From contig JAJYJM010000001.1 in assembly GCA_021789495.1 (NCBI GenBank), positions 89,004 through 153,003 of the forward strand: a stretch of DNA of 64,000 nucleotides, in the 5' to 3' direction. This document shows, in pieces, positions 231 through 19,375 of this stretch. Both the position numbers and the translations under genes were made by a program. Source of the DNA: Nitrospirota bacterium (GTDB lineage: Bacteria; Nitrospirota; JACRHJ01). The notes beneath the pieces were generated by a model. The model ran no database searches. It was not told the DNA's origin and worked only from the letters and a program-made list of their open reading frames with translations. Numbering within the stretch: the stretch's first letter is position 1; each line of letters begins with the position of its first letter.

Positions 231-306
231 GCCGAGGTAGCTCAGTTGGTAGAGCAGAGGCCTGAAAAGCCTCGTGTCCGCAGTTCGATTCTGCGCCTCG
301 GCACCA
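231..306 (+). tRNA. tRNA-Phe (anticodon GAA), CCA encoded
   Basis: Cloverleaf read by hand: acceptor GCCGAGG/CCTCGGC, D-arm AGCTCAGTTGGTAGAGC, anticodon loop CTGAAAA (GAA), T-arm GTTCGATTC, discriminator A, CCA at 304-306. Close to E. coli tRNA-Phe. Confidence 0.9.
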
Positions 307-314
307 TCTTCCGC

Positions 315-1706
315 CTATTTTTTTACCTCCGTATAAACCCCTTCGGAGGCCTCCTTCTCCGCTTTCATCTTCTCCCAGACTACATCCGCAATCCCGCAAT
401 ATTCCTCGGAATACCTGTCCAGGTCCTTCGCCAGGTCGGTCAGTATCTTCTCCGCGCCCTCGTGTGTGGCCCTGGCGCCTGAGGCCAGAACGGCCTCCCG
501 GATAAATTCCGGTTTGTCTATCATCATGCAGGGCGTCAGCATGTTCTTGTTCGTCTTCTGCCGCTCGCGTATCGTCTTGAAGAAAGGCGACATCAAAGCG
601 TCTTTTATCTTCGTCTTCCTGATGTTGTCCACGGCGAAGTGGCAGAACACGCACGGCTCTATATCTCCGTGGGCGTTTATGTGCAGATATTTCCTGCCTC
701 CCGCGAGGCATCCGCCCACGACATGGCCGTCGTTCCAGAAGTCGGCAAGCAGTATCGGCTTCGTCTTGCGTATTCGCCAGACAGTCTCCCTGAGCGCGCT
801 CCTCTGGCTCGGCGTGGGCATGAGTTCGATATTCGGCTCCCTGCCTATGGGTATATACGAGAAAAACCACCCTACCGTGCAGCCCTTCTCAATCATCAGG
901 TCGTAATACCCGTCGGAAGTAATGGTCTCGAAGTTCTTCCTTGTGGCGGTGCAGGAGAAGCCGAAAAGCACCCCCGCGTCCTTCAGGAGGTCCATGGCTT
1001 GCATGACCTTCCGGAAGTGGCCTTTGCCGCGCCTCAAGTCTGTCTCCTCCTCGAACCCCTCCACGCTTATGCAGGGCAGGACGTTGCCGAGTTCCGCAAC
1101 CTCTTTTACCTTCTTCTCGTCGAGAAGCCCGCCATGCGTAAATACCAGGAACGCGACATCGTCGTGCTTCTCGAATATCTTAAGCAGATCCTGCCGGAAG
1201 AAGGGTTCCCCGCCGGAGACGACGCAGAAGAACACCCCCATCTCCTTCATCTGGTTTATTACGCCGTCAACCTCGTCGAAAGAGAGCTCGTCCGTCCTCT
1301 TGTAGCTCCCGGCATAGCACCCGAAGCAGTTGAGATTGCAGCGCATAGATGGCGAAATGACGTAAAGACCGGGCGGGTAGAAACCTCCGCCTTCGTCCTG
1401 GAACGCCTTCCGCCTGTTCGTGCCGACGAGCATCTGGCCTACTATGAACGTCTTTACCAGCCTCTTGCGGACGTTCGGGTGGGTTTCCCTCAGTATCTTC
1501 TTTGCGACCTGGAGGCTGGGGTGGCCGTCCATGAACATCCGGCGGATGGAGCGGATTGCCTTGACGTAATGGTCCTTTTTGGCGAACTTCTCGGCAAGGT
1601 ATGTAAACCTGATAAGGTTTTCATCAGAACTGTTCCCGATAATCCCAAGAAGCGCGTCCGCCGCCTGGGTAATAGTATAATTTTTAAGCTGCTCAAAATA
1701 ACTCAT
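315..1706 (-). CDS. radical SAM protein with C-terminal Cys-rich (SPASM-like) region
   Basis: CNLNCFGC (CxxxCxxC) radical SAM motif and GGEPF motif. C-terminal Cys cluster (GGCLAGG...CVFCHF...). 463 aa. Confidence 0.8.
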   Translation of the reverse strand: MSYFEQLKNYTITQAADALLGIIGNSSDENLIRFTYLAEKFAKKDHYVKAIRSIRRMFMDGHPSLQVAKKILRETHPNVRKRLVKTFIVGQMLVGTNRRKAFQDEGGGFYPPGLYVISPSMRCNLNCFGCYAGSYKRTDELSFDEVDGVINQMKEMGVFFCVVSGGEPFFRQDLLKIFEKHDDVAFLVFTHGGLLDEKKVKEVAELGNVLPCISVEGFEEETDLRRGKGHFRKVMQAMDLLKDAGVLFGFSCTATRKNFETITSDGYYDLMIEKGCTVGWFFSYIPIGREPNIELMPTPSQRSALRETVWRIRKTKPILLADFWNDGHVVGGCLAGGRKYLHINAHGDIEPCVFCHFAVDNIRKTKIKDALMSPFFKTIRERQKTNKNMLTPCMMIDKPEFIREAVLASGARATHEGAEKILTDLAKDLDRYSEEYCGIADVVWEKMKAEKEASEGVYTEVKK

Positions 1707-1777
1707 TAATTAAATTACCCTCCGATCCTTAATCTGGTAGCGTAATTTTTACAGAATGGAGGGCGTCAAGTCAAGGA

Positions 1778-2689
1778 TTAATCCCAAAAATAATAAAAAT
1801 TAAACCATTGCTCAGGATGACGGCGGACATATTTCTCAAATATTATGGCTATTTTGCTTATATTTGCTTTTAAGTCCGACTCGACGTCTCCGGTATCCGT
1901 CATTTCTATCGGAGGCTCCGCCACGGGATGGTATCTGCCGTCTTCCCCCATAATCGTAAACGCGGGTATCAGCGGCGCGCCAGTCTTCATTGCAAGGAGC
2001 ACGGGGCCTTTCGGGAGCATGGCCGGTTTTCCGAAGAAATCGGCCATAATCCCGGATTTATTCAATACCCTGTCACCCTGTATCGCCACAAGTTCGTTTC
2101 TTTTAAGCGCATTATATGTGCCCAGAGCGAACCCGGCTGGATTATCAGGAGAGATTATTTTTATCCCTCTTATCTCCTTGTTTTTGTCCAGGAGCCGGTT
2201 CTGCTCCTCTGAGTTATACAGATACTGCACGACGTTCACCTTGAACCCCAGGTATTTCAGCAGTATGCCACCCAGTTCCCAATGACCGATATGCGCGGTG
2301 AGGATTATCGCCCCTTTTCCGGACTCGATGGCCTTTTTTATATTTTCAAGGCCAATAAATTCCGGAACTCTCGATGCAATCTCGGCGTCGCTCATGCGCT
2401 CGAAGCGGAAGAGGTCTAGCAGGAACCTCCCGTGCCTGCGCCAGAGCCTGCGCACTACCTTTCGCTTCTCACGCGGGGAGACATCCGGGCCGAGGACGTG
2501 GTCGAGGTTTCTTACCTGCTCCGGGACTATATTTTCCGATTTATAGTAGAACAGCCAGTCGGCGATCCTGTTTCCTATGAAATTGGCGACAGGGGCGGGA
2601 ATATATTTTGCTCCCCAGGAAATCCACCAGTAGATGGAATGCCTGTCCAGACGGTAGGAATGCGTCCCCTTAACCATCCAAAAGCCCAA
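1778..2689 (-). CDS. lysophospholipid/lipid A-type acyltransferase (LpxL/HtrB family)
   Basis: 303 aa with an AHIGHWE (H-x4-E/D-like) motif and general LpxL-like architecture. Overlaps the downstream rSAM by about 20 nt, so the start may be the internal Met at 2677. Confidence 0.6.
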   Translation of the reverse strand: MGFWMVKGTHSYRLDRHSIYWWISWGAKYIPAPVANFIGNRIADWLFYYKSENIVPEQVRNLDHVLGPDVSPREKRKVVRRLWRRHGRFLLDLFRFERMSDAEIASRVPEFIGLENIKKAIESGKGAIILTAHIGHWELGGILLKYLGFKVNVVQYLYNSEEQNRLLDKNKEIRGIKIISPDNPAGFALGTYNALKRNELVAIQGDRVLNKSGIMADFFGKPAMLPKGPVLLAMKTGAPLIPAFTIMGEDGRYHPVAEPPIEMTDTGDVESDLKANISKIAIIFEKYVRRHPEQWFNFYYFWD

Positions 2690-4226
2690 GCCTGCTCAAG
2701 GCTTCCCTCATAGGCCCCCGGAACGGGCGGGGAGTCTCGGAGAGAAATGCGTCCCTTACGTCCTTTACCAGGACTTTCCCGGAACCCTGAGATGCGGACG
2801 TTTGCGCCTTTTTCCCAACCGCCTTGCGCGCAATAGGCCGCAAAAGCGCCGGAACCTCCGACAGCACTTTCTCGAAGACCTCGCGGGCAAGGGCGTCCCA
2901 GGAGATTTCTCTCAAATTTGATTCCGGGCGCATCCCCTGAAGGATGCCCTTCGCGGGATAGCAGACCCAGTCCGGGTGTCTCTTGAAATAATCTCCGGCA
3001 ATCGAATACAGATTATCCCCCAGTTTGTCGGAGACATAAAACTTCGGCTCCATAAGCGGGTCGCCTGGGTCAATCAGCCTTTCTTTTACGGCGAGACGGG
3101 CAAGAGGCGTGCCGGGGTATATCCGGATTCCGGCGACGGCGAAGACCTTGTCGGGTTGGACGTCTTCCAGGGTGTCGAAGGTCTCCCTTAAGGTGTCAAT
3201 ATCCTCGCCGGGACCGCCGAGGATGAGGAAAACAAGGCACATCAACCCCGCTTCCTTTGCGGCAATTATTGACCTTGCGGCCTCTTTTTTATCGAAATTC
3301 TTGCCGAGTTTTGAAAGCACCCTGTCGGAGAGCGAATCCGCGCCGACCTCCACGCTCTCGCATCCCGCCCGTTTCATCTTCTCAAGAAGTTTTGCGTCGA
3401 GACCGACGGGGCTTGCGAGGCAGCCGAAAGAAGGCTTTATGCCGCGGCTGATTATTTCGTCGCATATTGCAAAGGCGTGTTCCGGCGGGTTGTTGAAGAT
3501 ATTGTCCACAAAATAAAAAGGCGCGGAAAGTCCCCTGTCCATCGCGCCGGCCATCTCCCGCACGACTTCTGCCGGTGGCCTGAGGCGCATTTTTACCCCT
3601 TCCAGGCCGGGATATGTGCAATAGACGCACGAGAACGAACATCCGCGCTTGGACTGTATGCCGAGCATGTCATATTTATTCGCCGGGAAAATATCCCACG
3701 CGGGCATGAAGAACGAACCGGAGCCGAGCTGACTTGGCGGGTTCCGGATATAAGAGCCGTCCTCGAACCTGCAAAGGCCCGGAACGGAAGCATGTGGGAT
3801 TTTGCCCTGAAGAGCGTCCGCAAGCATCGGCACGGACATTTCGCCCTCGCCGGCTATCCCGTAGTCCGCCCCCAGGAATTCGAGCGCGGCCTTCGGCATA
3901 ATGGAATAGCCCGGCCCGCCGACGACAACCGGGGCATTCGTTTCCCGTTTTATCAGGGCTATGGTTTCTTTGTAATCCGGCAGGAGGAAGCGGCTGGAAG
4001 ACTCTATGTTGCGTATCGAGACGGCTATGAGTTCAGGTTTGGCGGAAGCAATGGTATGCTTTAGCAGGGACTCCGGATTGTCCGCGAAGAGTAGGTCGAG
4101 CGCGCGCACGTCGTGCCCAGCCCGGCGAAGCGCAGAGGCTACAAGCGCAAGGCCGAGCGGGGCCGCCGTGAACGGTTCCGTTTCCCTGTTTACGGAAACA
4201 AGCAGGATGCGCAAATGAAACTCCAA
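2670..4226 (-). CDS. B12-binding domain radical SAM protein
   Basis: N-terminal B12-binding-like region (RILLVSVN...GLALVASALRRAGHDV), then RGCSFSCVYC (CxxxCxxC). 518 aa. Confidence 0.8.
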   Translation of the reverse strand: MEFHLRILLVSVNRETEPFTAAPLGLALVASALRRAGHDVRALDLLFADNPESLLKHTIASAKPELIAVSIRNIESSSRFLLPDYKETIALIKRETNAPVVVGGPGYSIMPKAALEFLGADYGIAGEGEMSVPMLADALQGKIPHASVPGLCRFEDGSYIRNPPSQLGSGSFFMPAWDIFPANKYDMLGIQSKRGCSFSCVYCTYPGLEGVKMRLRPPAEVVREMAGAMDRGLSAPFYFVDNIFNNPPEHAFAICDEIISRGIKPSFGCLASPVGLDAKLLEKMKRAGCESVEVGADSLSDRVLSKLGKNFDKKEAARSIIAAKEAGLMCLVFLILGGPGEDIDTLRETFDTLEDVQPDKVFAVAGIRIYPGTPLARLAVKERLIDPGDPLMEPKFYVSDKLGDNLYSIAGDYFKRHPDWVCYPAKGILQGMRPESNLREISWDALAREVFEKVLSEVPALLRPIARKAVGKKAQTSASQGSGKVLVKDVRDAFLSETPRPFRGPMREALSRLGLLDG

Positions 4227-4283
4227 ATCCCCCTCAATCCCCTTTGAAAAAGGGGGAAGCCGAAGGCAGGGGATTTTTCCCCG

Positions 4284-4859
4284 TTACTTCCTCAGTTTCT
4301 CCACGAAATCCGTCAGTTTGTCGCCCAGGTCCTGCGCCTCGTGGAGCACCATCTCCCATTTGTCGTTCGTGTTGCGCAGGCCGGATGAGTTCGAGTGCCT
4401 GAACTTTGCCAGTACCTCCCCGGTCTTAGCGTCCTTGATGTCGCCTTTTACGGAAACGTTGACGCCTCCCGCTCCCCAGCCTACAAACAACCTTGTGACT
4501 GCGCTTCCGAGGTCTATCTTCGTTATCTCGCCCTCGATTATCATATCGGCCTTGTCGGCGTTCTTCCCGTCCTTGTCAATCAGGAATGCGTTTATGCCAT
4601 CGCCCTTGAGGTCGCTGACGACCGTCTTGGAAAGCCGCTTCTGCACCCTTTCCAGGAATCCGCCCTTCATCCTCCTCATCTCATCCCTGTTCACGTTATC
4701 GTAGTTTATGTTATCCGTGGAAAAGAGTTTGACGCCGATGGATTTATAGTCTTTCAGACTTTTATCCGTAAGCACTTTCGTATGATCGAGACTTCCCGCA
4801 AAAGACAATGACGGCACGGCAATAACAGCCGTTAAAACGAGAAATAAAAATTTCTTCAT
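4284..4859 (-). CDS. secreted/lipoprotein of unknown function
   Basis: Signal peptide MKKFLFLVLTAVIAVPSLSFAGS. Charged, Lys/Asp-rich mature part with no catalytic motif. Confidence 0.5.
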   Translation of the reverse strand: MKKFLFLVLTAVIAVPSLSFAGSLDHTKVLTDKSLKDYKSIGVKLFSTDNINYDNVNRDEMRRMKGGFLERVQKRLSKTVVSDLKGDGINAFLIDKDGKNADKADMIIEGEITKIDLGSAVTRLFVGWGAGGVNVSVKGDIKDAKTGEVLAKFRHSNSSGLRNTNDKWEMVLHEAQDLGDKLTDFVEKLRK

Positions 4860-4940
4860 GTTCCAACCTCCTATCGTGATTAGATCTGAAAAATCCCACA
4901 GACTATCCCGATAAACCGGAAAATGCGCCTCCTTTCTTTT

Positions 4941-6296
4941 TTATTTACTTTTTAATATCTGTCTGGCCGCCGCCCTTCCGGAGAGTATCGACGATGCGGT
5001 GCACCCGCCGACCGGCAGAACCGTAGATCCTACGCAGAACAGTCCGCGCACCGGAGTCGCCGTAGACATCTTTTCGTAATGCACGCTTTCGGCAACCGGA
5101 GAGACCGAGCTTGTAAAACCGAAATTGGTCGCGTAATCGGCAGGGGTGTAAAGTCTGCTGTCCACGGTGTTTTCACTGAAACCCGGTATCAGTGAATCCG
5201 CCCTGCCCATTATCCTTCCGGCTTCCGCCTCAATCGCCTCTCTCGGAACGGCGCCTCTCGGGACAAGGAATTTTATCGTCCCCGCCAGATGTTCCTCCGC
5301 AGCGCCGTATGCGGCATGCGGGACGGAAATGACGAACATGTTGTCTTCCGGGAAAGAACCTTCCTTCAGCGTCCTGAACATCCCGCTGACGCCGGCCGGG
5401 AACATGGCATAGACATGCGCGCCGGGGATTATTTTAGCACCTTTCTTAAACACTGTAAATACGCTCGCCATGCTGAATCCTTCCTTGTAGTAGCCGAGCG
5501 TGTTAAGAAATTCCGACGGGAAATCTTTTCTGTCTGCAAGAGAATGCACCGTGTGAAGGATTCCAGTCCCGCTTATTACATTTACCGACTCCATCTCCCT
5601 GCCGTCGAGCAGTATTCCACGCGCACTGCCGTCCCGGATGATTATTCTGTCGGGCTGCGCATTATACACTATCCCCCCGCCGTTTTCGCGTATGACTGAG
5701 GCCAAGAGTTCCGGCAGTCTCCCGGAACCCGCCCTCGGTATAAACGGCTTGTCGTATCCGTACGTCCTGCCGAAGACAAGATTGAACCAGTGCGAAGGCA
5801 TGTTCTCAGGATTGTTGCCGGAAAAAAACGCCCCGACGTTGAATATCTCCCTCAGGCTCCCGTTTTCCGTAATCCTGTTTACGAGTTCGCTGTACCCGGA
5901 TATTTTCCTGTAGCGGTTGAACATTATCTGTCCACCCGTCCGAAGCCCCAGTTTTCCCATATCTCCGGCGTTCATGCCCATGCCCCGGAAATCCCGGAAT
6001 GTATGAAGGCCGGGCGGGATTGTCATGGATGAATTTCCGTGCCTTGCGATAACCTTGAACCATACGGGGTCAAGCTCTTTTTTCTTGCCGAGTTCTGAAA
6101 ATATCCCCAGTATCTTTTTCCCGAAATAGTCCGCGCCGATGTCGAAGCGATGGCCCATAAGCTCCACGCTCCGGCAGCGCCCGCCCGGCTCGGACATCTT
6201 CTCAAGCACAAGCACTTTCCTGCCGGCCCGCGCGAGATACGCCCCGGCGGACAGCCCGCCCAGCCCCGCGCCGATTATTATCGCGTCATATTTCAT
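4941..6296 (-). CDS. FAD/NAD(P)-binding oxidoreductase, phytoene desaturase (CrtI/CrtD)-like
   Basis: N-terminal dinucleotide fold MKYDAIIIGAGLGGLSAGAYLARAGRKVLVLEK. About 450 aa, typical of the CrtI family. Confidence 0.7.
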   Translation of the reverse strand: MKYDAIIIGAGLGGLSAGAYLARAGRKVLVLEKMSEPGGRCRSVELMGHRFDIGADYFGKKILGIFSELGKKKELDPVWFKVIARHGNSSMTIPPGLHTFRDFRGMGMNAGDMGKLGLRTGGQIMFNRYRKISGYSELVNRITENGSLREIFNVGAFFSGNNPENMPSHWFNLVFGRTYGYDKPFIPRAGSGRLPELLASVIRENGGGIVYNAQPDRIIIRDGSARGILLDGREMESVNVISGTGILHTVHSLADRKDFPSEFLNTLGYYKEGFSMASVFTVFKKGAKIIPGAHVYAMFPAGVSGMFRTLKEGSFPEDNMFVISVPHAAYGAAEEHLAGTIKFLVPRGAVPREAIEAEAGRIMGRADSLIPGFSENTVDSRLYTPADYATNFGFTSSVSPVAESVHYEKMSTATPVRGLFCVGSTVLPVGGCTASSILSGRAAARQILKSK

Positions 6297-7491
6297 TTTT
6301 TATTCTCTCGACCGCCTGTTTAGCCGTATATACGCACGACTCTATGCATGGCAGGCGGTAGAAATCTCCAACGATGTAAGCTCCGGGGACTTCCGTCTCG
6401 ACGCCCCTTGTCCTGCTTGCCGGAGGGATGAGCGTTATCGCGGGCGACCAGCCGACCTTCGGAAGCTCCTTGTATTTCCCGAACACCGCTTCAATATCAG
6501 CGTCGGGCCTGTAGAGAAACATCCCGGCGATGGTCCTGCCGTCCGGGAGATGCTTCATCTCTCCGCCGTGCACGCCGTGCGGGTTGTTGAATTTCGAGAA
6601 GAGAAGGACGTCGTACTTCCGATATTGCGGACAGCGCGCCTCGAATATGACGCCGCGCGTCTTGGTGCACTTCATATTGAAATTTATCTCCGGCATTATT
6701 CTGCCGAGGCTCTCCTGCCCGGTGGCGAATACGATATTATCTGCGGTTTCCTTAAACGGCTTTTCGTCAGGCCCTATAATATTTACATCAAATGCTCCCG
6801 ATGAGTTCTTCCCGGCGCTCTCGATCCTGAATCCCGCCCTTACAACGCCCGGCATTCGCCGGACGAGTTCCGACGCCACGTCCGCCATGCCCTTGTGCGG
6901 CACGCGTATCGGCGTATCGCCGTAAGCGAGCAGAAAGAGGCCGTGGTCGGCGGCGATGTGCGGCGGGTCTATGTATCCGAAGCTTGAGAACGGCTGGACG
7001 ATATAATCGAGCATTTTCCTGGAATATCCCATGTCCCTGACACAGAACTCTTCGAGGGAGACGGAATGCAGTTCCTGGAGCTTCGGGTCCCAACTCTCAA
7101 GGCGGAAATCGAGACCCTTTATAAATTTTACGAGCCTCCTCCACTTCATATATTCCGAAATGGAAAAAAGCCCGCTTCTGAACATCGACCATGAATCGAG
7201 ACCGGTAATTTTATCGCCGACCTGGAGCGCGAATTTCTTCAGCCTTATAAGCTCATGCGGCACTCCAAGCTCGGCAATCAGTTCCGTAAAACCGCGGTTC
7301 AGTTCCGGCGCGAACATCATCGCGCCCTTGTTTATGTATACACCTTCATACTCAAGCGTCGCAAAACGACCGCCGGCTTCCGGCCTCTTTTCGTATACGA
7401 CAGGCAGGAAACCTTCATTCCGGAGGTAGTAAGCGGTGGACAGGCCGGCGATTCCCGCGCCGAATATCAAAATCCTTTTATTCAATTGCAT
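6286..7491 (-). CDS. FAD-dependent oxidoreductase (amine oxidase/protoporphyrinogen oxidase-like)
   Basis: RILIFGAGIAGLSTAYYLRNEGF...EKRPEAGGR Rossmann motif. Overlaps the neighbouring genes by 10-11 nt. Confidence 0.7.
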   Translation of the reverse strand: MQLNKRILIFGAGIAGLSTAYYLRNEGFLPVVYEKRPEAGGRFATLEYEGVYINKGAMMFAPELNRGFTELIAELGVPHELIRLKKFALQVGDKITGLDSWSMFRSGLFSISEYMKWRRLVKFIKGLDFRLESWDPKLQELHSVSLEEFCVRDMGYSRKMLDYIVQPFSSFGYIDPPHIAADHGLFLLAYGDTPIRVPHKGMADVASELVRRMPGVVRAGFRIESAGKNSSGAFDVNIIGPDEKPFKETADNIVFATGQESLGRIMPEINFNMKCTKTRGVIFEARCPQYRKYDVLLFSKFNNPHGVHGGEMKHLPDGRTIAGMFLYRPDADIEAVFGKYKELPKVGWSPAITLIPPASRTRGVETEVPGAYIVGDFYRLPCIESCVYTAKQAVERIKNEI

Positions 7492-8393
7492 AAGAGCGTC
7501 TCGAGGTTGCCTGAAAATATATTCATTTTCGACGTATCGCTTATTAAAAGTTCCTTAACCGCGTCTATCGATGCCCGTATATCCCTGTTCGCCGGAAAAT
7601 CGCTGCCCCACAGCACTCTATCCTCCCCGAAAACATTAATCGCAAGGTCGAGCATTCTCGCGTCCGCCGCGCCGGAAGTGTCGATATAAATCTTTTTCAG
7701 AACCTCTTCCGGCCCTTCGCCCATGCCTTTTACAATCCCGCGGCCCAGGAGCATTTTATATGTCCTTCCGTATCTCCCGGCGAGAAACGGCATGACGCCG
7801 GCAAAGCTTGCGAATACAAGCTTCAGCCGGGGCAATTTCTCAAGCAGCCCGCAGTCTATGATTTTTGCAAGGCATAGCGTGGTATCGAACGCATATTGGA
7901 ATACCGGCGTGATGAGCGGATGGCGAAGCTTCTCAAAACCGAAAGGCGAAAGCGTCGTCGGGTGGAAAAATACGGGTTTGCACCAGGCCTCGGCTTTCTC
8001 GAAAAACGGCAGGAACCTCCCCTCATCCGGATAGACTCCGCCGCCGTTTGTCGGCATTGTAAAACCGGACGCGCCTTCGGACAGCGCCTCTTCGCCAAGT
8101 GAAATCATCCCGCCGGCGTCCGCCAACGGAACCGCCGCAAGCCAGGATAGGCGCCCGCCTGAATTCGCGGCAATATCCTTCACGCCTCGGTTATACGCCG
8201 CCGCCGCGGCAATCTCCGTCATTGCGGCCCGGACATGGAAATCCGTCGTTGGATATGAAATCAGCGCGCGTGAGACGCCGGCCTCGTCCATAGCCCTGAG
8301 ATGACCGTCCATGCCGCCCCAGGATTCGTTATAGAAAGAGGCGTTTCTGATTACTTCGTCCGGCAGTAAGTGAAAGTGAGCGTCTAATATCAT
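7482..8393 (-). CDS. amidohydrolase family 2 (PF04909-like; decarboxylase/hydrolase TIM barrel)
   Basis: MILDAHFHL canonical start and VLWGSDFP C-terminal motif. Start moved to the internal Met at 8393, which forms a TGATG stop/start overlap with the upstream gene. The ORF track gives 8441. Confidence 0.7.
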   Translation of the reverse strand: MILDAHFHLLPDEVIRNASFYNESWGGMDGHLRAMDEAGVSRALISYPTTDFHVRAAMTEIAAAAAYNRGVKDIAANSGGRLSWLAAVPLADAGGMISLGEEALSEGASGFTMPTNGGGVYPDEGRFLPFFEKAEAWCKPVFFHPTTLSPFGFEKLRHPLITPVFQYAFDTTLCLAKIIDCGLLEKLPRLKLVFASFAGVMPFLAGRYGRTYKMLLGRGIVKGMGEGPEEVLKKIYIDTSGAADARMLDLAINVFGEDRVLWGSDFPANRDIRASIDAVKELLISDTSKMNIFSGNLETLLCN

Positions 8394-9627: not shown

Positions 9628-9630
9628 TTT

Positions 9631-10631: not shown

Positions 10632-10646
10632 CGCTGTACCCCTTGC

Positions 10647-13123: not shown

Positions 13124-13389
13124 GCCTCCACCCGCCTGACCTTGAACCGCACGTACCCTCCGTCCGGGCATGTCACGGTATTGATGGAGTTCGGGTCTTC
13201 CATGAACGGATATTTCGCGCCGAAGTTCAGCGCGAATAGCACCGGGAAGAGCGTGTGGTATGCCGCCCCGCAGAAACCCTCGGGCGTCCTGAGCCCCAGC
13301 ACCTCCACCTCCTGCCCCTGCTCGTATTTATAAAAACACGGCCCGGAGACCTCTTCGACGGAAATAATCATCTTCTTCGGATTTGCCAT
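13120..13389 (-). CDS. TIGR04076-like small Cys-containing protein (paralog 2)
   Basis: 89 aa. Motifs GPC..., PEGFCGAAYH, FPxM, TCPDGG, FKVRRVE match my recollection of the TIGR04076 family. Paralogous to the adjacent gene. Confidence 0.5.
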   Translation of the reverse strand: MANPKKMIISVEEVSGPCFYKYEQGQEVEVLGLRTPEGFCGAAYHTLFPVLFALNFGAKYPFMEDPNSINTVTCPDGGYVRFKVRRVEA

Positions 13390-13655
13390 TATAACTTCCT
13401 CACTTTAAATGTAAGATTCCCGCCGTCCGGGCACGTCGTCCGGACGCAGCCTTCAGCGTCCTTGAACGGAAATTCCGCGCCGAACGTCCAAGCGTAAAGG
13501 ATAGGGAACAGCGAATGATACGCGCCGTAGCAGAAGCCGTCCGGCGGCGTCACGAAGTCTTTTACCTCGAAAGTGTCGCCCTTTTTCAATCCCTTGAAGC
13601 ATTCCTTGCCGACTTTATCCACCGTCAGGATAAAACCCGGGAATTCCATCATCAT
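13389..13655 (-). CDS. TIGR04076-like small Cys-containing protein (paralog 1)
   Basis: 88 aa. KECF, DGFCYGAYHSLFP, TCPDGGNLTFKVRKL. Tandem paralog of 13120-13389. Confidence 0.5.
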   Translation of the reverse strand: MMMEFPGFILTVDKVGKECFKGLKKGDTFEVKDFVTPPDGFCYGAYHSLFPILYAWTFGAEFPFKDAEGCVRTTCPDGGNLTFKVRKL

Positions 13656-14650
13656 AGTCCGAACCTCCTCAGCATTTCATCGACCGACAGATACCTGTTC
13701 GTTTTTTCGATCTCCTTCACAAGCTCGACGGCCTTGCCGTTCAGCCTCGCCTCGCGCCCCGTCCTGTCTGCCTCCCTGACTACCTCGCCGTTTAAATAAT
13801 CCACCTCGGAATCCCTCCCGCGCATGACGCTCTGGAGGACGGAGCCGGGTAGCGGCAGGTGCGAAAGACCGCGCATTATGTTCCCGTAAATCTTAGGGCC
13901 TATTTCCTTCGGCGCGCACAGAAGCGATTTAAGTTTTTCGAGCGGAAGGTCCGGGAGGTCTGCCATCTCGCTGCCTGCGGCCTCGAAAACATCCCATGCC
14001 TCACGCATAAGCGAGAGGCCCAGGGAGCAGACCTCGTCTTCCGAAAACGTCTCCTGGAGGTCTTTGCCGAGGATGCAGGCGACGGCGTTATTTAAGTTCA
14101 GTATCAGCTTCGCCCTATGCACGGCCTGTATGTTTTCCGTCACATGCACCTCGAAGGCGGCGGACAGTATCTTCCCGACCTTCTCCACGATACCCCCGCC
14201 ATCCCGCCCGAATGCCTTGCCGATGACAAGCCCGCCGGGGAAATTATACGTAACGCGCCCAGGCTCTTTATACGTGGCTCCGAACATGACGACGGAAGAC
14301 ACTATCCGCTTGCTGCCGAGGATTCTTCCGGCTATCTCGTCGGCCATAAGACCGTTCTGCATCGTCAGCACCGGGAAATCTCCCATCCCCGCCATCTGCC
14401 TGCAAGCCGCTTCCATGTCCTGCGTCTTTACGGCAATCAGCGTCAGGTCTGGAATGAATTCCAGGGTTCTCGCGGCGTAGATTACATAATTTCTCCCGCC
14501 GGCTATGCCGTCGATTGAAAGGCCGTTATGATTGATTGCTCTGACCTGGCGCGGGTCCCGGCTCACGAGCGTAACCGCGTGCCCCTTTTCATGGAGCATC
14601 GCGCCCGCGACGCATCCTATTGCCCCTGCGCCGATTACAGCGATTTTCAT
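13652..14650 (-). CDS. ketopantoate reductase (ApbA/PanE) family 2-dehydropantoate 2-reductase-like oxidoreductase
   Basis: MKIAVIGAGAIGCVAGAML Rossmann start. C-terminal SVLQSVMRGRDSEVDYLNGEVV matches the KPR family signature. Confidence 0.75.
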   Translation of the reverse strand: MKIAVIGAGAIGCVAGAMLHEKGHAVTLVSRDPRQVRAINHNGLSIDGIAGGRNYVIYAARTLEFIPDLTLIAVKTQDMEAACRQMAGMGDFPVLTMQNGLMADEIAGRILGSKRIVSSVVMFGATYKEPGRVTYNFPGGLVIGKAFGRDGGGIVEKVGKILSAAFEVHVTENIQAVHRAKLILNLNNAVACILGKDLQETFSEDEVCSLGLSLMREAWDVFEAAGSEMADLPDLPLEKLKSLLCAPKEIGPKIYGNIMRGLSHLPLPGSVLQSVMRGRDSEVDYLNGEVVREADRTGREARLNGKAVELVKEIEKTNRYLSVDEMLRRFGL

Positions 14651-16590
14651 GAATCGATATCCGCTTCGCTTAAGATAACGCCGGTTTCGTTTACGTTCTC
14701 ATCCCATAAAATACTGTTTATTATCTCCTTCGGCCTTCCCGTGTTGATGTCCCAGCTGTGGCAGGCGTAGTATTCGTCGAGCATCCCGTCGTAGAGCGCC
14801 CTGTCAAGCTTCATTTTTCTTGACTCTTCGTCCAGCCCGTCCTGCAATGCAAGCGGCTCGAAATATCTCGCGGGCGGATAGTCGTCTTTGCGTCCCACGC
14901 CTTCGCGGCAGATGAACCTGCGCTCCACGTCAGTAATCGCGTTGCCCGCCTCGAACACCTCTTCCGGGGTCATATCAATGCCGCTTGCCGTTTTTATGAG
15001 GTCGCTGAAGACCCTGAAGCCGAATACGCCCGGTTCGGGCAGCGTGTGGAACGCAAGGAGCTTGCAAAGGCCGAGGGCGTCGAAAAGCGCGAGGTAGCAC
15101 TCCCACCACCAGACCACGCGCCCCTTGCCGCCATATTTCAGCGGGTCCGGCTCCACGGGGCCGCCGTAGATTCCCTCCAGGAAATTCCTGTCGAACTCGA
15201 AGGCCTCCCACGGGCACCGGCTGCGCAGGTGATCCGCGCCCCTGGTTGAAGTGGAGACGCCAAGGGCGAACGCCTTGATGAAGCGAAGGTCTACCGGGTC
15301 GGACTGCGGGAGGTTCTTTACCCATATCAGGCGGCTTTTCGATGCTTCTCCGAGCTTTGCCGAGGCTTCTTTCGCGCCGTCGGCAAGGAAATCTCCAAAA
15401 CCCCTTCGGAACGCAATATCCTCCAGAAGCCCGGCGACCGTCTCCGGAGCGTTCCAGTCGAGACCGACTCCGCCAGTCTCGGCGTCCCCTATGATGCCTT
15501 CCTTGTATAACTCTATCGCCCAGGCGATGATGTTTCCGGCGGAGCTTGCGTCTATTCCGAGGCGGTTAAGCCTGTCGTTCAGCATCAACACGGCCTCGGC
15601 GGAATTTATGCCGAGAACCGGCCCCATGTGTCCCATAACGCCGTATTCCGGGCCTTCGCCGGAAAGCCCGGCGTGCTTTCCTTTATCTATCCTGTATGAA
15701 TGCCTGCATGAGACTACGCAGTTCCTGCACCCGCGCCTGCCGGAATAGTAACCGGTTTCAAGCGTCTGCGGGGAGAGGTCTCCCGGCTCTTTCATTTTCG
15801 TGGACAGGCCGTTATACGCCCGCCCCATCTCGATATTCGTGTTTATTACATTATAGAGATGCCCGGTCCCGTAACGCGCAAGGTCCTGCGTAAGGAACTC
15901 CGCCTTCAATTTCCTGTTTATTTCGCGCGTCAGAGACGCGAAGTTTTCGGCGTCGCGCGGATGCGTTTTCCCGCTATCGACCGCCACGACCGCCTTGAGG
16001 TTCTTGCTCCCCATAAGGCAGCCCATGCCCGTGCGGCCCGCGGCGTTCTTCCTGCCGTGCATGATGCAGGCGAAGCGCACGAGGTTCTCTCCCGCGGGGC
16101 CTATGCATGCAGTCTGAACCCCCTCGCCGCACTGCTCCTCTATAGCCCTCTGCGTATCGAAGGAGTCCATGCCCCAGACGCGCGAGGCGTCCTTTATCTC
16201 GGCAATCGCGCCGCCGCCGTTTTTCCTGATGAGCAGGTAAACAGGTTTTTTTGATTTCCCCGTAATGAATAGGTGCCTGACGCCCGTGGAAACGAGGGCG
16301 CATCCAAAATCGCCTCCGATATTCGCGTCTCCGAAAAGGCCGCTCTCCGGGCTTTTGCCGGTAACGGTCAACCTCGCCGATGACGGCCCCGGCATCCCGG
16401 TTAATAGCCCGGCCCCGAATATCAACGGGTTTTCCGGACTCAGGGGGTCAAGCCCGGCCCCGGTGTTTTCAAGCAGAAGCGCGCTGTTTATTCCCCGCCC
16501 GCCGATATACCCGCGAATCAAGGCTTCCGGCATATCTCTGGTTTCACAGGAGCCGGAGGATAAATTTATGTATAAAATCTTATGGTTCAT
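14647..16590 (-). CDS. aldehyde:ferredoxin oxidoreductase (AOR) family, tungsten/molybdopterin enzyme
   Basis: 647 aa. N-terminal MNHKILYINLSSGSCETRDMPEALIRGYIGGRG is typical of the AOR family, and the Cys ligands for the 4Fe-4S cluster are present. Confidence 0.85.
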   Translation of the reverse strand: MNHKILYINLSSGSCETRDMPEALIRGYIGGRGINSALLLENTGAGLDPLSPENPLIFGAGLLTGMPGPSSARLTVTGKSPESGLFGDANIGGDFGCALVSTGVRHLFITGKSKKPVYLLIRKNGGGAIAEIKDASRVWGMDSFDTQRAIEEQCGEGVQTACIGPAGENLVRFACIMHGRKNAAGRTGMGCLMGSKNLKAVVAVDSGKTHPRDAENFASLTREINRKLKAEFLTQDLARYGTGHLYNVINTNIEMGRAYNGLSTKMKEPGDLSPQTLETGYYSGRRGCRNCVVSCRHSYRIDKGKHAGLSGEGPEYGVMGHMGPVLGINSAEAVLMLNDRLNRLGIDASSAGNIIAWAIELYKEGIIGDAETGGVGLDWNAPETVAGLLEDIAFRRGFGDFLADGAKEASAKLGEASKSRLIWVKNLPQSDPVDLRFIKAFALGVSTSTRGADHLRSRCPWEAFEFDRNFLEGIYGGPVEPDPLKYGGKGRVVWWWECYLALFDALGLCKLLAFHTLPEPGVFGFRVFSDLIKTASGIDMTPEEVFEAGNAITDVERRFICREGVGRKDDYPPARYFEPLALQDGLDEESRKMKLDRALYDGMLDEYYACHSWDINTGRPKEIINSILWDENVNETGVILSEADIDS

Positions 16591-16598
16591 TCCAGAGT

Positions 16599-16841
16599 TT
16601 ATTCCGGCATATTAAACCCGGAGTTCCTTGCGGTATCGCGCATACTCTTTTGGAACGGCGCCGGGGTTTCGGAGATAAACGCGGCGACAATATCCTGTTC
16701 TTCCACCAGCGCGGCTCCGCGCGCGGAAGCGTTTTCCTCCGCCTTCTTCCCGGCCAGCTTCTCCGCCATTTTCCTCTGAAAAAACGGTATCGTGGAAATC
16801 ATCTTATCGAACTTAGCCTTTCCTCCATGCTCCCAATCCAT
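16599..16841 (-). CDS. small protein with PCP_red-like (protochlorophyllide reductase 57 kDa subunit C-terminal-like) domain
   Basis: 80 aa. DIVAAFISETPAPFQKSMRDTA resembles the C-terminus of the 17327-18733 product (DDICAAWLRATPAPFRKLIEEKI). Confidence 0.4.
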   Translation of the reverse strand: MDWEHGGKAKFDKMISTIPFFQRKMAEKLAGKKAEENASARGAALVEEQDIVAAFISETPAPFQKSMRDTARNSGFNMPE

Positions 16842-16856
16842 AAAAATATCTCCTTT

Positions 16857-17330
16857 TTATTTCATGCCTCCTGCCTGCCCTCGCGCGGGAATTTCTGCGC
16901 CCTCAAGGGCGGATTTCATCGCGTTCAGTATCCGGACTATGTTCTCGTCGTGCATCCTGCGGTATGCAAGTTTCCATAAAATCCGGTTTATGCCGCCCAT
17001 GACTTCGTAGTCCATCAGGAAATGGACTTCGTTTGCCTTTTCGCTTTGTTTTATATACACTTGGTCCGTGCCCCGGAACATGCCGGTGATGAATCTCCTC
17101 GATATTTCATATCCGGGGGTTATCGATATTACTTCGACGTCCCATTCCGGCGCGAACGGCCTGTAAACCTTCTGGTGAAAGCACGTGCCGACCTTTACCT
17201 CCCCGGAATCCGCCCGGCTGTATTTCATGGGAGATTCGCCCGGCCACCAGGCGCTCTCGCCCCAGAGGACGATTTCTCTATATATCGCGTCTACGGGCGC
17301 GTTTATCGTTATAAAATGATGGCTTATCAA
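16857..17330 (-). CDS. SRPBCC family protein (polyketide cyclase/dehydrase-like)
   Basis: FITINAPVDAIYREIVLW START-fold N-terminus. Start reset to TTG at 17330, overlapping the upstream TGA. The ORF-track ATG at 17405 would overlap the upstream gene by 79 nt. Confidence 0.6.
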   Translation of the reverse strand: MISHHFITINAPVDAIYREIVLWGESAWWPGESPMKYSRADSGEVKVGTCFHQKVYRPFAPEWDVEVISITPGYEISRRFITGMFRGTDQVYIKQSEKANEVHFLMDYEVMGGINRILWKLAYRRMHDENIVRILNAMKSALEGAEIPARGQAGGMK

Positions 17331-18733
17331 CTCCTCATCTCCATTATTTTTTCCTCTATCAGCTTCCTGAAAGGCGCGGGAGTAGCCCTCAGCCATGCGG
17401 CGCATATGTCATCTACGCCCACCTTCCCGCCATTTGAGGCGCGAACCTCGGACGCGATCTTTTTCTCGGCGGCCTGACGAAATACTGCGGGCACAAAGTC
17501 AAGGAGCTTCTTATGCGCCTTGCCGGCATCCGCGTCCCATTCATCGGCGGAACCCGTTGAATCTTCACGGTAAATATCGCCGGAGACCAGGGATTCCAGC
17601 AGGGCCTCATATTTTCCCGCCGCCACGCCGACCATCCCTTCGTCCACCTTCAGCGCTTTTCTGGCAATCAGGCCGCAGTAGCCGCACTCCCGGCAGTCGC
17701 TCGTGGCGCAGTCTTTCGTCTTGAAAAAGCTGAGGAAATTAGATGGAATCCTGGAGTTGTCCAGCACGAGGCCTTCCGTGACCGGATAGTCCGTAATATC
17801 GGCGAATTCCATTAATTTTGCGGTATTTATATACTCATCCCTAAGGAGATATTTCACGTTTGCCGGCAGAAAGGCCTTCTTGCGCGGTAGATTTAGAAGC
17901 TCGACCAGATTTCCATCGTATCGTCTTTCGGAATAAGCCTTAAGGTAGGACAGCAGCGTCTCCGTGGTCTTGTAGCGGTCGATAATCTTGAGGCAGTCGA
18001 TCCCGGCCATCTCGTAATCCTCGACATCTTCCGGGCGTATCCACCTGATTTTTATAAGTTCTTCCGGATGCCGGACCTTTTCGCTCGTGCAGGAAAAATA
18101 GCAGTGGTCTACTAGAAATCCCTCAGAGGAATGCCCGCCCTGGGATCCATGCGTCATTACATTGGCGTGATAGAAAGAGCGCGGGCACCCGTATAGGCAG
18201 CCGGGGTTTGCAATCAGAATAAGTTTACACTTTACTGCCTTACGGATGGCCTCCAACGTCTTGAAATCCCTGTTTATTTCCTCTGAGAGCACAATGGCGT
18301 CGGCGCCTATGGATTCCCAGTACTGGGCCTTCCGCACGCTCTCGACCCGCGCCCAGCTCGATACGGCAATCTTAAGTTCCGGGAAATGCCTCCTGATTAT
18401 CTCAAGGAGATAGGGAATTGTTACCGTCACCCAGTCCGCCCCGGTGGACTCTACCCAGCCTATGTGTTGGATTATCTTGGCGAATTCGTCTTTTCTGTAT
18501 TCCCTGTTGTCGAGACAGGAGGCGTTCAGCAGGAAATTGAAGGAATATCCGGCCTTCCTTGCGGATTCGATATATTTTCCGGCGTCCGATTCGGTTATTT
18601 CCGGGGCTACGAAGGACGCCCTGCCCCCTGCGATAAGGCTTCCAGGGATGCCGCCGAAAAGCTCCACGTCCGGAAATTTCTCCAGTCCTTTCAGGAGATT
18701 AACGTCCCAGTTGCAGGCCAGTTCGAATTTCAT
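17327..18733 (-). CDS. U32 peptidase-family-like TIM-barrel protein with C-terminal PCP_red-like domain
   Basis: The N-terminus ELACNWDVNLLKGLEKFPDVELFGG has the pattern of U32 proteins (ELLxPAGN..LKAAI..GADAVY.G). It has a Cys cluster GCLYGC...CYFSC...CRECGYC and the C-terminal PAPF motif. Family assignment is tentative. Confidence 0.4.
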   Translation of the reverse strand: MKFELACNWDVNLLKGLEKFPDVELFGGIPGSLIAGGRASFVAPEITESDAGKYIESARKAGYSFNFLLNASCLDNREYRKDEFAKIIQHIGWVESTGADWVTVTIPYLLEIIRRHFPELKIAVSSWARVESVRKAQYWESIGADAIVLSEEINRDFKTLEAIRKAVKCKLILIANPGCLYGCPRSFYHANVMTHGSQGGHSSEGFLVDHCYFSCTSEKVRHPEELIKIRWIRPEDVEDYEMAGIDCLKIIDRYKTTETLLSYLKAYSERRYDGNLVELLNLPRKKAFLPANVKYLLRDEYINTAKLMEFADITDYPVTEGLVLDNSRIPSNFLSFFKTKDCATSDCRECGYCGLIARKALKVDEGMVGVAAGKYEALLESLVSGDIYREDSTGSADEWDADAGKAHKKLLDFVPAVFRQAAEKKIASEVRASNGGKVGVDDICAAWLRATPAPFRKLIEEKIMEMRS

Positions 18734-19287
18734 GCCGCATCCTTTCCGGCCTCAAGCCTGGCGATTATTCCTTCGAGAAATTTTATCTCCGCCGCCGAGT
18801 GGGCGAGGTAATGCTCCGGAATAAAAAGGAAATTTTCCGGCGCGCGTTTTGAGACAAGCTCCTCCCTGAACCTCTCCGCTTCGGCATGATATTCCTTAAG
18901 TCTTACACGGAGTTCCCGTATCTGGGCAAGAAAACTGCCACGGTCGGATTCCCGGAGGAAGTAAAAAGAGATGTCGAGCGCCAGGTGCGGACGCTCGAAA
19001 TTCGTAATGTTTTCCTGGATTAAGCTGTCGAAAGTCCTGACGCCCTCGTCGGTAATGTGGTATATCTGCTTTTCGGGATGCGCGGTGTCCTTGAGGGCGC
19101 TTTTGGTTACAAGGCCGCGTTTTTCAAGGGTTTTCAGGTTATGATAGAGGGAGCCGGAGGTGATGGGCGCCACATGGACGAGTTCCTCGTCCACAAGTTG
19201 CTTTATCTCGTAGCCATACATGGGCTTTTTCTTGAGAAGACCAAGAATAAGCACCTCTTTCGACATGGTCGTATAGAGACCGGCCAC
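18730..19287 (-). CDS. PadR family transcriptional regulator
   Basis: ILGLLKKKPMYGYEIKQLV...HNLKTLEKRGLV winged-helix signature. GTG start at 19287 with a GGGGGA RBS. An alternative ATG at 19266 is possible. First gene of the co-directional cluster. Confidence 0.8.
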   Translation of the reverse strand: MAGLYTTMSKEVLILGLLKKKPMYGYEIKQLVDEELVHVAPITSGSLYHNLKTLEKRGLVTKSALKDTAHPEKQIYHITDEGVRTFDSLIQENITNFERPHLALDISFYFLRESDRGSFLAQIRELRVRLKEYHAEAERFREELVSKRAPENFLFIPEHYLAHSAAEIKFLEGIIARLEAGKDAA

Positions 19288-19346
19288 CTCATCCCCCTTT
19301 CGTGAAGTATTACGGCTTAAAATAGTTCATGTAAAATAGTCTGCGT

Positions 19347-19375
19347 ATAATATCAGGCAAAATCCGGCATGTCAA
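19347..19375 (-). promoter_or_regulatory. sigma70-like promoter (TTGACA -17 nt- TATTAT) upstream of padR and the cluster
   Basis: Minus-strand TTGACA at 19375-19370, a 17-nt spacer, TATTAT at 19352-19347. About 55 nt upstream of the padR start. Confidence 0.5.

Follow-up and report, generated by a model that had tools for sequence, protein, structure and literature searches.

A 64,000-nt stretch of the genome of a Nitrospirota bacterium (GenBank assembly GCA_021789495.1, contig JAJYJM010000001.1, positions 89,004 to 153,003 of the forward strand; hereafter the window) carried beside its tRNA-Phe gene a run of minus-strand genes, at positions 315 to 19287, that probably forms a single operon-like cluster for an aromatic type II polyketide and belongs to a large, uncharacterised, non-actinobacterial clade. 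A preliminary description of this DNA had recognised the minimal architecture of an aromatic type II polyketide synthase (PKS) in it, and trees and profile scores confirmed the elements of that reading, namely a ketosynthase (KS) pair, an acyl carrier protein (ACP), and TcmN-type and PF04199 cyclases. All defining sequence features of an aromatic type II PKS were found except the glutamine of the chain-length factor (CLF). The product would most likely be a decarboxylated, anaerobically tailored and possibly acylated polyphenol. The scaffold machinery is familiar, whereas the Gln-less CLF, a set of conserved extra core genes and a wholly anaerobic tailoring and lipidation set are less so.

The KSalpha/CLF pair

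In phmmer searches against the Protein Data Bank (PDB), KSalpha scored 410 bits against the actinorhodin (act) KSalpha (1TQY_A) and 388 bits against AntD (6SMO_B), compared with at most 348 bits against any FabF, 292 bits against 9S5H_B, which is probably the anammox amxFabF2 of bioRxiv 10.64898/2026.05.19.726425, and 234 bits against the highly reducing Iga11 (6KXD). By tblastn, the best plasmid-borne relatives were all Streptomyces type II PKS KSalpha genes (51-53% identity); the two that were checked lay in canonical clusters, both with a CLF and one also with an ACP and an aromatase/cyclase. The catalytic Cys-His-His residues (TGCTA, HGS, GHP) were invariant in 87 of 87 KSalphas of the family. 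For KSbeta, the best PDB score was to FabF (246 bits), ahead of the act CLF (170 bits) and AntE (140 bits), a preference that is uninformative because a canonical Streptomyces CLF likewise scores FabF above all but its own clade. The position of the active-site Cys was occupied in the KSbetas of the family by Arg (64/72), Lys (3/72) or Ile (5/72, comprising the window protein and four Nitrospirota relatives), while the first His was mostly replaced by Asp, as in canonical CLFs, and the second mostly by Asn.

A neighbour-joining tree of 25 sequences (MAFFT alignment, Kimura distances, 300 bipartition bootstraps; the anammox FabFmut lay outside the tree) separated KS and CLF sequences from FabFs with 94% bootstrap support. 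The window KSalpha fell into a KSalpha clade (98%) with the act protein, two Streptomyces KSalphas, AntD and a KS encoded on a Staphylococcus haemolyticus plasmid, and within it shared a non-actinobacterial subclade (93%) with AntD and the Firmicutes plasmid KS; the window KSbeta grouped with actinobacterial CLFs (99%). This was the comparison with FabF and FabB that the preliminary description had proposed, and because the tree places the two proteins in the KSalpha and CLF clades, they do not group with either. Motifs, scores and clades together upheld the assignment of a KSalpha with a Cys-less KSbeta partner, and we regard the pair as a genuine aromatic type II PKS KSalpha/CLF, not as FabF paralogues.

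Carrier protein, cyclases and decarboxylase

The ACP of the core was recovered by its Pfam match and GVDS motif (Table 1), and the neighbouring PF04199 protein, also predicted earlier to be a cyclase, retained its metal motif. Its best plasmid relatives were 40-45% identical and came from many phyla. Two were inspected, of which one adjoined a KS and KS-N-like pair (S. haemolyticus) and the other an ACP (Kitasatospora). Since both adjoin KS/CLF or ACP genes, the protein is best placed in a PKS-associated subfamily, and a role as a generic hydrolase was not adopted. It corresponds to the 'OxyN' element of the 'ancestral' non-actinomycete layout KS-CLF-ACP-TcmN-OxyN discussed in PMC7693217, a layout with which the window order KS-CLF-ACP-OxyN-TcmN agrees.

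Two SRPBCC aromatase/cyclase-like proteins had been described. The one at 9190-9627 is a strong TcmN homologue that also matched WhiE-ORFVI and a Streptomyces coelicolor cyclase; TcmN/WhiE-ORFVI-type proteins are monodomain cyclases of unreduced aromatic polyketides. The other, orf182, had no Pfam match with its own sequence and is assigned to SRPBCC by family membership alone, because Polyketide_cyc2 was matched by 6 of 12 family members and not by orf182 itself. A profile search of the PDB with orf182 returned nothing significant, its single-sequence AlphaFold 2 model was unusable (pLDDT 39.5), and a close paralogy to TcmN was rejected since hhalign against the TcmN family aligned just 16-17 residues. 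The Amidohydrolase_2 protein belongs to a group in which every solved relative is a decarboxylase (ACMSD, IDCase, LigW, gamma-resorcylate and 2,3-DHBA decarboxylases).

Distribution and conserved gene order

A pattern scan of one genome per GTDB species gave at least 600 pattern matches and at least 575 confirmed relatives of the cluster. Among the best 80 of these relatives, KSalpha was 78-96% identical to the window protein in Nitrospirota, and 55-63% identical in Omnitrophota and in metagenome-assembled genomes (MAGs) labelled Planctomycetales, Syntrophaceae, Dehalococcoidales and Thermodesulfobacteriota. Species-level MAGs with this core in unchanged order number at least 80 and probably several hundred, in Omnitrophota, Nitrospirota, Syntrophaceae and other groups. 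Across 86 loci from several phyla, the conserved order was [PadR]-orf80-ApbA-[TIGR04076]-KSalpha-KSbeta-ACP-cyclase-SRPBCC-Amidohydro_2, accompanied by a BchE-like B12-radical S-adenosylmethionine (SAM) enzyme and, outside Nitrospirota, also by a short-chain dehydrogenase/reductase (SDR).

Around this core the versions differ. Omnitrophota loci carried an AMP-ligase, a PNP_UDP_1 protein, two IF-2B-family proteins, a class II aldolase fused to SCP2, an aldehyde dehydrogenase and a major facilitator superfamily (MFS) transporter, placed upstream or downstream of the core (L001, 840-7134; downstream in L033, L067 and L082). The PNP and IF-2B genes could serve in 5'-deoxyadenosine salvage or trim an adenosylated intermediate, possibly supplying a starter unit; HpnH/HpnG and MqnE/MqnB trim adenosylated intermediates. 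PNP and IF-2B homologues (32-36% identical) were also seen with U32 and B12-radical SAM genes beside a squalene-hopene cyclase in another locus (L101, 9720-12186). Specific to Nitrospirota were the genes for the U32 protein, orf182, aldehyde:ferredoxin oxidoreductase (AOR), FMN reductase, both flavoenzymes, DUF4410 protein, TIGR04072-like radical SAM enzyme, LpxL-like acyltransferase and SPASM enzyme, which hold their order in relatives down to about 53-55% radical SAM identity. Where the full upstream flank was available (50 loci), AOR was encoded in 6 and aldehyde dehydrogenase in 27, and never both (0/50). This mutual exclusion suggests that an aldehyde/acid step is part of the pathway and is carried out by non-orthologous replacements.

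A type II PKS-like cassette is also carried by a small Firmicutes plasmid, the 23.7-kb NZ_CP120084.1 of S. haemolyticus. Positions 5022-8017 of this plasmid encode, one after another, a PF04199 cyclase, a KS that groups with AntD (73% bootstrap) and a KS-N-like partner that is truncated.

A catalogue published in 2023 already includes KS-CLF pairs of Ca. Omnitrophica and Nitrospirae, for which it gives no products and which it places in a 'previously unexplored, primarily non-actinobacterial clade' (PMC10132072); for Ca. Desulfofervidus, a type II PKS cluster had been mentioned in 2019 (PMC6638757). Beyond these catalogue-level mentions we found no literature on a characterised product of this clade, in agreement with the initial impression that the cluster matches no characterised pathway. 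The accompanying statement that such systems are very rare in strict anaerobes holds for characterised pathways but not for genomes, given a core that probably occurs in several hundred species-level MAGs.

Operon organisation

Between 315 and 19287 there were 21 minus-strand open reading frames. The preliminary description had counted 22 co-directional genes, but the intergenic gaps, at most 81 nt, are too small to hide another. In order of transcription, the genes encode PadR, U32, orf182, orf80, AOR, ApbA/PanE reductase, two TIGR04076 proteins, KSalpha, KSbeta, ACP, PF04199 cyclase, SRPBCC, FMN reductase-fold protein, Amidohydrolase_2, two flavoenzymes, DUF4410 protein, B12-radical SAM enzyme, LpxL-like acyltransferase and SPASM enzyme (Table 1). 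Taking the most plausible starts, spacing ranged from overlaps of 1-11 nt, as described earlier, to gaps of up to 81 nt. Overlaps were 7 nt for KSbeta/KSalpha, 4 nt each for KSalpha/the first TIGR04076 gene, ApbA/AOR and PadR/U32, 11 nt between the two flavoenzyme genes, and 10 nt between the decarboxylase gene and the first CrtI-like gene.

The sigma-70-like promoter predicted upstream of padR was recovered with 11 of 12 consensus matches and a TG extension. Tight packing and overlaps behind this one strong promoter-like site mark the whole region as a single operon-like unit, as do the order kept as far as the SPASM gene and tRNA-Phe in a Nitrospirota relative (L094, B12-radical SAM enzyme 55% identical) and a domain of about 75 aa common to orf80, the U32 protein and the B12-radical SAM enzyme (see below).

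The adjacency of the approximately 19-kb single-strand cluster to tRNA-Phe was also borne out: the last cluster gene ends 8 nt past the tRNA gene, and the two are convergent, being on opposite strands. G+C content was about 0.52-0.58 within the cluster and 0.51-0.60 over the window, with no step at the cluster borders, and in L094 tRNA-Phe again follows the SPASM gene. Because G+C is uniform and the tRNA-Phe adjacency is conserved, there is no sign of recent island insertion, and a tRNA-linked genomic island was rejected.

Table 1. Coordinates and supporting matches of the cluster genes and flanking elements in the window.
Feature	Position	Strand	Evidence
tRNA-Phe (GAA)	231-306	+	ARAGORN; sole tRNA in window; convergent with last cluster gene
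Radical SAM/SPASM enzyme, 463 aa	315-1706	-	PF04055 + PF13186; same position in L094
LpxL/PatA-like acyltransferase	1778-2689	-	PF03279, E 4e-43; PIM acyltransferase 129 bits vs cutoff 209
B12-binding radical SAM enzyme, C-terminal PCP_red/DUF2621-like domain	2670-4226	-	TIGR04072 334.7 bits, cutoff 360
DUF4410 protein, N-terminal signal-like sequence	4284-4859	-	PF14366
CrtI/phytoene-desaturase-like flavoenzyme	4941-6296	-	PF01593 + PF13450; crtI_fam 87 bits, below cutoff
Amine-oxidase/protoporphyrinogen-oxidase/HpnE-like flavoenzyme	6286-7491	-	PF01593; weak NCBIfam matches
Amidohydrolase_2, ACMSD-type non-oxidative decarboxylase (core gene)	7482-8441	-	PF04909; conserved in 46 loci
FMN reductase fold, iron-sulfur flavoprotein type	8393-9118	-	PF03358; CX2CX2CX5C motif CLACNRCLCGLSC
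Monodomain TcmN-type aromatase/cyclase (SRPBCC, 145 aa)	9190-9627	-	TcmN 2REZ 120 bits, E 5.6e-34
PF04199 (OxyN-type) polyketide cyclase	9631-10398	-	PF04199, E 2e-30; HxGTHxDxPxH metal motif
Acyl carrier protein	10395-10631	-	PF00550, E 3e-10; GVDS motif
KSbeta/CLF, predicted catalytically dead	10647-11855	-	Cys to Ile, His to Ser, His to Asn; without Gln
KSalpha ketosynthase	11849-13123	-	STGCTAG, HGSS, GHPL motifs; Cys-His-His intact
Two tandem TIGR04076-family small proteins	13120-13389, 13389-13655	-	
ApbA/PanE (ketopantoate-reductase)-family NAD(P)H reductase (core gene)	13652-14650	-	PF02558 + PF08546; 81/86 loci
AOR, tungstopterin type	14647-16590	-	PF01314 + PF02730
orf80, stand-alone PCP_red/DUF2621-like protein (core gene)	16599-16841	-	73/86 loci
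orf182, divergent SRPBCC-family protein	16857-17405	-	Start codon uncertain; 6/12 family members match Polyketide_cyc2, best E 3.2e-6
U32-family protein, Cys clusters + C-terminal orf80-like domain	17327-18733	-	PF01136 50.5 bits (gathering 22.4); PDB 5D88 matches
PadR-family regulator, first gene	18730-19287	-	PF03551; GTG start at 19287; heads 19 loci
Sigma-70-like promoter	19347-19375	-	TTGACA-17 nt-TATTAT, upstream TG extension, 11/12 consensus matches

Tailoring genes and a shared domain

The surroundings of the core were of tailoring type, as first described, with no fab or lpx neighbours in the window cluster. Monooxygenases of the antibiotic biosynthesis (ABM) or FAD type, an SDR C-9 ketoreductase and O-methyltransferases were likewise missing from the cluster. 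The U32 protein contains Cys motifs NPGCLYGCP...DHCYFSC and CATSDCRECGYC, the downstream Cys residues being predicted ligands of an Fe-S cluster, and along its entire length shares 31-35% identity with U32 proteins of two other loci (L100 and L101). U32 proteins occur in the O2-independent hydroxylation systems UbiU/V, TrhP and RlhA. The AOR scored 282 bits against Pyrococcus furiosus AOR and 146 bits against BamB, the latter over the N-terminus only, and a role as a BamB-like dearomatising reductase was rejected. The B12-radical SAM enzyme missed the cutoff of TIGR04072 ('lipid biosynthesis B12-binding/radical SAM protein') by 25 bits and was 38% identical to a Brocadia homologue. For the SPASM enzyme the best NCBIfam matches were NirJ/AhbD and maturases, all far under cutoff, and for the acyltransferase all LpxL/PatA NCBIfam models were below cutoff; the earlier identification of the latter as LpxL-like stands on its PF03279 match.

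By alignment, the domain of about 75 aa occurs three times in the cluster: as the whole of orf80, at the C-terminus of the U32 protein (17327-17560) and at the C-terminus of the B12-radical SAM enzyme (2670-2910). It has invariant W, P, R, A, V, D, A and PxPF and scores weakly against PCP_red/DUF2621. It is rare (only 60 clusters among 1.84 billion representative proteins, E <= 1e-3) and mostly stand-alone, being otherwise fused to U32, to U32 and SCP2, to LuxC and SPASM radical SAM, or found in SCP2-containing multidomain proteins. It may be an adaptor or substrate-presenting domain. Its fusion to a radical SAM enzyme is not specific to PKS clusters, as a homologue with the fused domain (P0174) had no PKS nearby.

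Members of the U32 and AOR subfamilies recur elsewhere with related B12-radical SAM enzymes (L100, L101) and with FMN_red (L100). L100 (GCA_024644125.1, JAHELQ010000032.1) encodes an FMN reductase, four B12-radical SAM enzymes, three U32 proteins (one SCP2-fused), an alpha/beta hydrolase and two AORs, the first 46% identical to the window AOR; it resembles a densely packed locus for anaerobic tailoring, with the scaffold gene lying beyond the contig. L101 has two U32 proteins, a B12-radical SAM enzyme, PNP_UDP_1, two IF-2B and two SPASM proteins, and adjoins a squalene-hopene cyclase and a polyprenyl synthase. On a Candidatus Brocadia contig (L092, 1321-11413), the B12-radical SAM homologue stands with a second B12-radical SAM enzyme, a chorismate pyruvate-lyase-like protein, an ACP, an AMP-ligase, a hydrolase and an O-methyltransferase; by predicted gene content this cluster is of an aryl-ACP type rather than a classical ladderane cluster I.

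Comparison with known systems

The clusters for AQ-256 (ant, Photorhabdus), dendrubins (den, Dendrosporobacter), and clostrubin and wexrubicin (clr and wex, Clostridia) have a similar core of KSalpha-CLF-ACP with TcmN-type and OxyN-type cyclases (PMC7693217). With ant the window shares the 93% non-actinobacterial KSalpha subclade, and with clr, wex and den, which were likened by description and not by sequence, it shares a strictly anaerobic host. It differs from all four in that its TcmN protein is monodomain and placed after the OxyN-type cyclase, its CLF has Ile (relatives Arg or Lys) instead of Gln, its conserved core additionally includes the ApbA-family reductase, TIGR04076, orf80 and the ACMSD-type decarboxylase, and its tailoring would be performed by U32, tungsten-dependent AOR (W-AOR), B12-radical SAM, SPASM radical SAM and iron-sulfur flavoprotein enzymes. 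Compared with act, tcm and whiE, the window KSalpha is 49-53% identical, the SRPBCC protein is a close homologue of TcmN/WhiE-ORFVI and KS and CLF genes are translationally coupled, whereas the CLF is just 31-33% identical and lacks the Gln, and the tailoring genes are anaerobic ones in place of ABM/FAD monooxygenases, an SDR C-9 ketoreductase and O-methyltransferases.

Anammox ladderane cluster I (amxACP, amxFabZ, amxFabF2/amxFabFmut, radical SAM) also combines a KS and dead-KS heterodimer with a dedicated ACP and a B12-radical SAM enzyme in an anaerobe. In contrast, the window KSalpha is nearer act and AntD than 9S5H_B, and the window has aromatase/cyclases and no FabZ; moreover, the Brocadia homologue of its B12-radical SAM enzyme lies in another cluster (chorismate-lyase-like, ACP, AMP-ligase, O-methyltransferase). 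None of the partners expected of ladderane or TIGR04072 systems, namely a FabZ/FabA-fold gene or a SAM methyltransferase, was among the 21 cluster genes. Features of aryl-polyene and highly reducing type II PKSs were likewise missing from the cluster (no SDR, no hot-dog dehydratase; Iga11 at 234 bits only), as were those of a fatty acid synthase II or lipid A locus (KS pair not with FabF/FabB, LpxL/LpxM/PatA models below cutoff, no fab/lpx neighbours). To the U32 systems (UbiU/UbiV/UbiT, TrhP, RlhA) the likeness lies in a U32 domain followed by Cys clusters, in SCP2-fused relatives that mirror UbiT, in an anaerobic setting and in a presumed hydrophobic aromatic substrate; at 15-17% identity to UbiU/V, the window U32 protein forms a separate subfamily with a C-terminal PCP_red/DUF2621-like domain.

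Proposed pathway

In the pathway that we propose, malonyl-ACP would be assembled into a poly-beta-keto chain by KSalpha, the dead CLF and the ACP. A CLF without Gln suggests non-decarboxylative priming, and a separate starter unit may be required to begin the chain. The TcmN-type aromatase/cyclase and the OxyN-type PF04199 cyclase would fold and aromatise the chain, and an aromatic acid could then be released and decarboxylated by the ACMSD-family enzyme. The ApbA-family reductase and the tungsten-type AOR may reduce or oxidise carbonyl or carboxyl groups, and the U32 protein, if it acts like UbiU/V, TrhP and RlhA, may be an O2-independent hydroxylase of the ring. A possible role for the B12-radical SAM enzyme is C-methylation, alkylation or other C-C chemistry, and the SPASM radical SAM enzyme, the iron-sulfur flavoprotein and the two CrtI-like flavoenzymes may also contribute to tailoring. 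Finally, the LpxL/PatA-like acyltransferase could acylate the product or link it to a lipid, and the polyphenol or quinone so formed would be associated with the membrane. Dendrubins provide a precedent for acylated and methylated polyphenols in an anaerobe (PMC7693217).

Alternative explanations

Several observations weigh against an aromatic polyketide pathway of this kind. The canonical CLF Gln was found in 0 of 72 family KSbetas, the window having Ile, and the grouping of KSbeta with CLFs could be inflated by long-branch attraction in a tree whose sequences did not include the anammox FabFmut. The CLF gate residues are W/A/L throughout the family and carry no calibration for chain length, and neither chain length nor ring pattern can be read from them. 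No SDR-type ketoreductase, malonyl transferase or phosphopantetheinyl transferase was present among the cluster genes. Hydroxylase activity of the U32 protein is an analogy only, because the protein is just 15-17% identical to Escherichia coli UbiU/UbiV and scored 24 bits against TrhP (cutoff 534). The nearest family of the B12-radical SAM enzyme is annotated for lipid and not aromatic biosynthesis, and the fused domain is also seen in homologues that have no PKS beside them. The carriers among the best 80 of at least 575 relatives are all MAGs, with no clade member of known product.

Some of these points feed the view, already raised as an alternative in the preliminary description, that the cluster makes an unusual membrane lipid, with KS/CLF and ACP building or initiating a modified acyl chain, the B12-radical SAM enzyme and CrtI-like desaturases modifying it and the LpxL-like enzyme installing it. 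The downstream third of the cluster gives this substance: two phytoene-desaturase-like genes stand there with the LpxL-like acyltransferase, the B12-radical SAM enzyme reaches 334.7 bits to TIGR04072 and 38% identity to its Brocadia homologue, orf80-like domains are elsewhere fused to SCP2 and LuxC lipid-handling domains, and a KS/CLF-like heterodimer (amxFabF2/amxFabFmut) acts in the anammox lipid pathway (bioRxiv 10.64898/2026.05.19.726425). Yet KSalpha is nearer act/AntD (410/388 bits) than FabF (348) or the presumed anammox KS 9S5H_B (292), the TIGR04072 cutoff is missed by 25 bits, and the cluster has no FabZ-, FabG- or FabI-type genes. The TcmN aromatase/cyclase and PKS-associated PF04199 cyclase are conserved core genes, and the lipid-like genes are limited to the Nitrospirota version whereas the aromatic core is universal. 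The lipid-like genes would seem to add lipidation or tailoring to the aromatic product rather than to replace it, and we consider a purely lipid product improbable. The same version-specific genes (two CrtI-like, DUF4410, TIGR04072-like, LpxL-like and SPASM), absent from Omnitrophota, Syntrophaceae and other versions, could instead form an independent lipid or cell-envelope modification unit (315-7491) that merely adjoins a PKS operon (about 7482-19287). B12-radical SAM homologues in unrelated contexts, and the lipid A and BamA genes further downstream in L094, fit such a division, but a 10-nt overlap joins the decarboxylase gene (7482-8441) to the first CrtI-like gene, all genes are co-directional with no evident promoter or terminator break, and the order is kept in Nitrospirota relatives to about 53-55% radical SAM identity, where matches to KSalpha and to the radical SAM enzyme could also be paired by the length of their contigs. 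In addition, the rare domain of the core protein orf80 recurs on both sides of the supposed boundary, in the U32 protein (PKS) and in the B12-radical SAM enzyme (lipid). Two separate units are rather unlikely.

An aromatic product need not be a sporadic antibiotic, and could be a physiological core metabolite, such as a quinone-like electron carrier of polyketide origin or a pigment that protects the membrane. The syntenic core in 80 of 80 best loci of at least 575 relatives (Omnitrophota, Nitrospirota, Syntrophaceae and others), a PadR regulator and MFS transporter as companions rather than resistance genes, and U32+SCP2 fusions in relatives that parallel UbiU/V/T of anaerobic ubiquinone synthesis would all suit such a role. 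Against it, the cluster has no prenyltransferase or quinone-tail gene, and prevalence, with identities inspected for the best 80 of at least 575 relatives, is by itself no proof of essentiality, so that we hold this possibility as doubtful. A catabolic locus, in which the 'cyclases' would be ring-opening hydrolases and the AOR and decarboxylase would degrade aromatics, is highly improbable. PF04199 does include hydrolases such as kynurenine formamidase, and AOR and ACMSD-type decarboxylases occur in degradation pathways too, but the arylformamidase match was weak (38 bits vs a cutoff of 223), the AOR is not BamB-like, and the window cluster has no CoA-ligase, thiolase or beta-oxidation genes. 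KSalpha, CLF and ACP are intact and accompanied by a TcmN aromatase/cyclase, a set for which we know of no catabolic role.

Returning to the aromatic polyketide cluster, a speculative extension, to which we attach little confidence, is that the accessory set (U32, W-AOR, iron-sulfur flavoprotein, B12- and SPASM radical SAM enzymes), tied together by the domain of about 75 aa, is a portable O2-independent tailoring cassette for hydrophobic polycyclic scaffolds. Here it would act on an ancestral PKS whose Gln-less CLF needs an external starter, and the product, a redox-active polyphenol or quinone anchored to a lipid, would serve a physiological function in Nitrospirota and, differently, in Omnitrophota. 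If true, the cassette would be the anaerobic counterpart of oxygenase-based polyketide tailoring.

Genomic neighbourhood

Adjacent NIR_SIR/ferredoxin-domain proteins are encoded at 49292-50368 (358 aa) and 50471-51649 (392 aa) and are consistent with a dsrAB-like pair, as would be expected of the dsr-carrying host that had been proposed; GltD-like, Fe-S and rubrerythrin genes come after them. The uncultivated host is probably a sulfite reducer. Genes for cobalamin biosynthesis (CbiC-domain, CobQ/CobB-like), SAM synthetase and S-adenosylhomocysteine hydrolase lie in the same window (21054-22139, 60783-62186, 34139-36699) and would supply the B12- and SAM-dependent enzymes of the cluster. In L094 (9297-16796), the cluster and tRNA-Phe are followed by POR subunits, HemN, BamA, OmpH, LpxD, FabZ and LpxA, so that the polyketide/acyltransferase cluster there abuts an outer-membrane/lipid A gene block.

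Significance

Characterised aromatic type II polyketides come almost all from aerobic Actinobacteria and are tailored mostly by oxygenases; to our knowledge, only a few are known from strict anaerobes, namely clostrubin, wexrubicin and dendrubins. The cluster described here represents a very widespread clade of uncultivated anaerobic phyla, in which an ancestral core is joined to an oxygen-independent enzyme set, and its minimal set (9190-13123) is small enough for direct heterologous testing. The product would clarify how a chain is started by a CLF without the priming Gln, and would test U32 and B12-radical SAM enzymes as substitutes for oxygenases and SAM methyltransferases on aromatic scaffolds. 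It would also show what role aromatic polyketides play in Omnitrophota and Nitrospirota.

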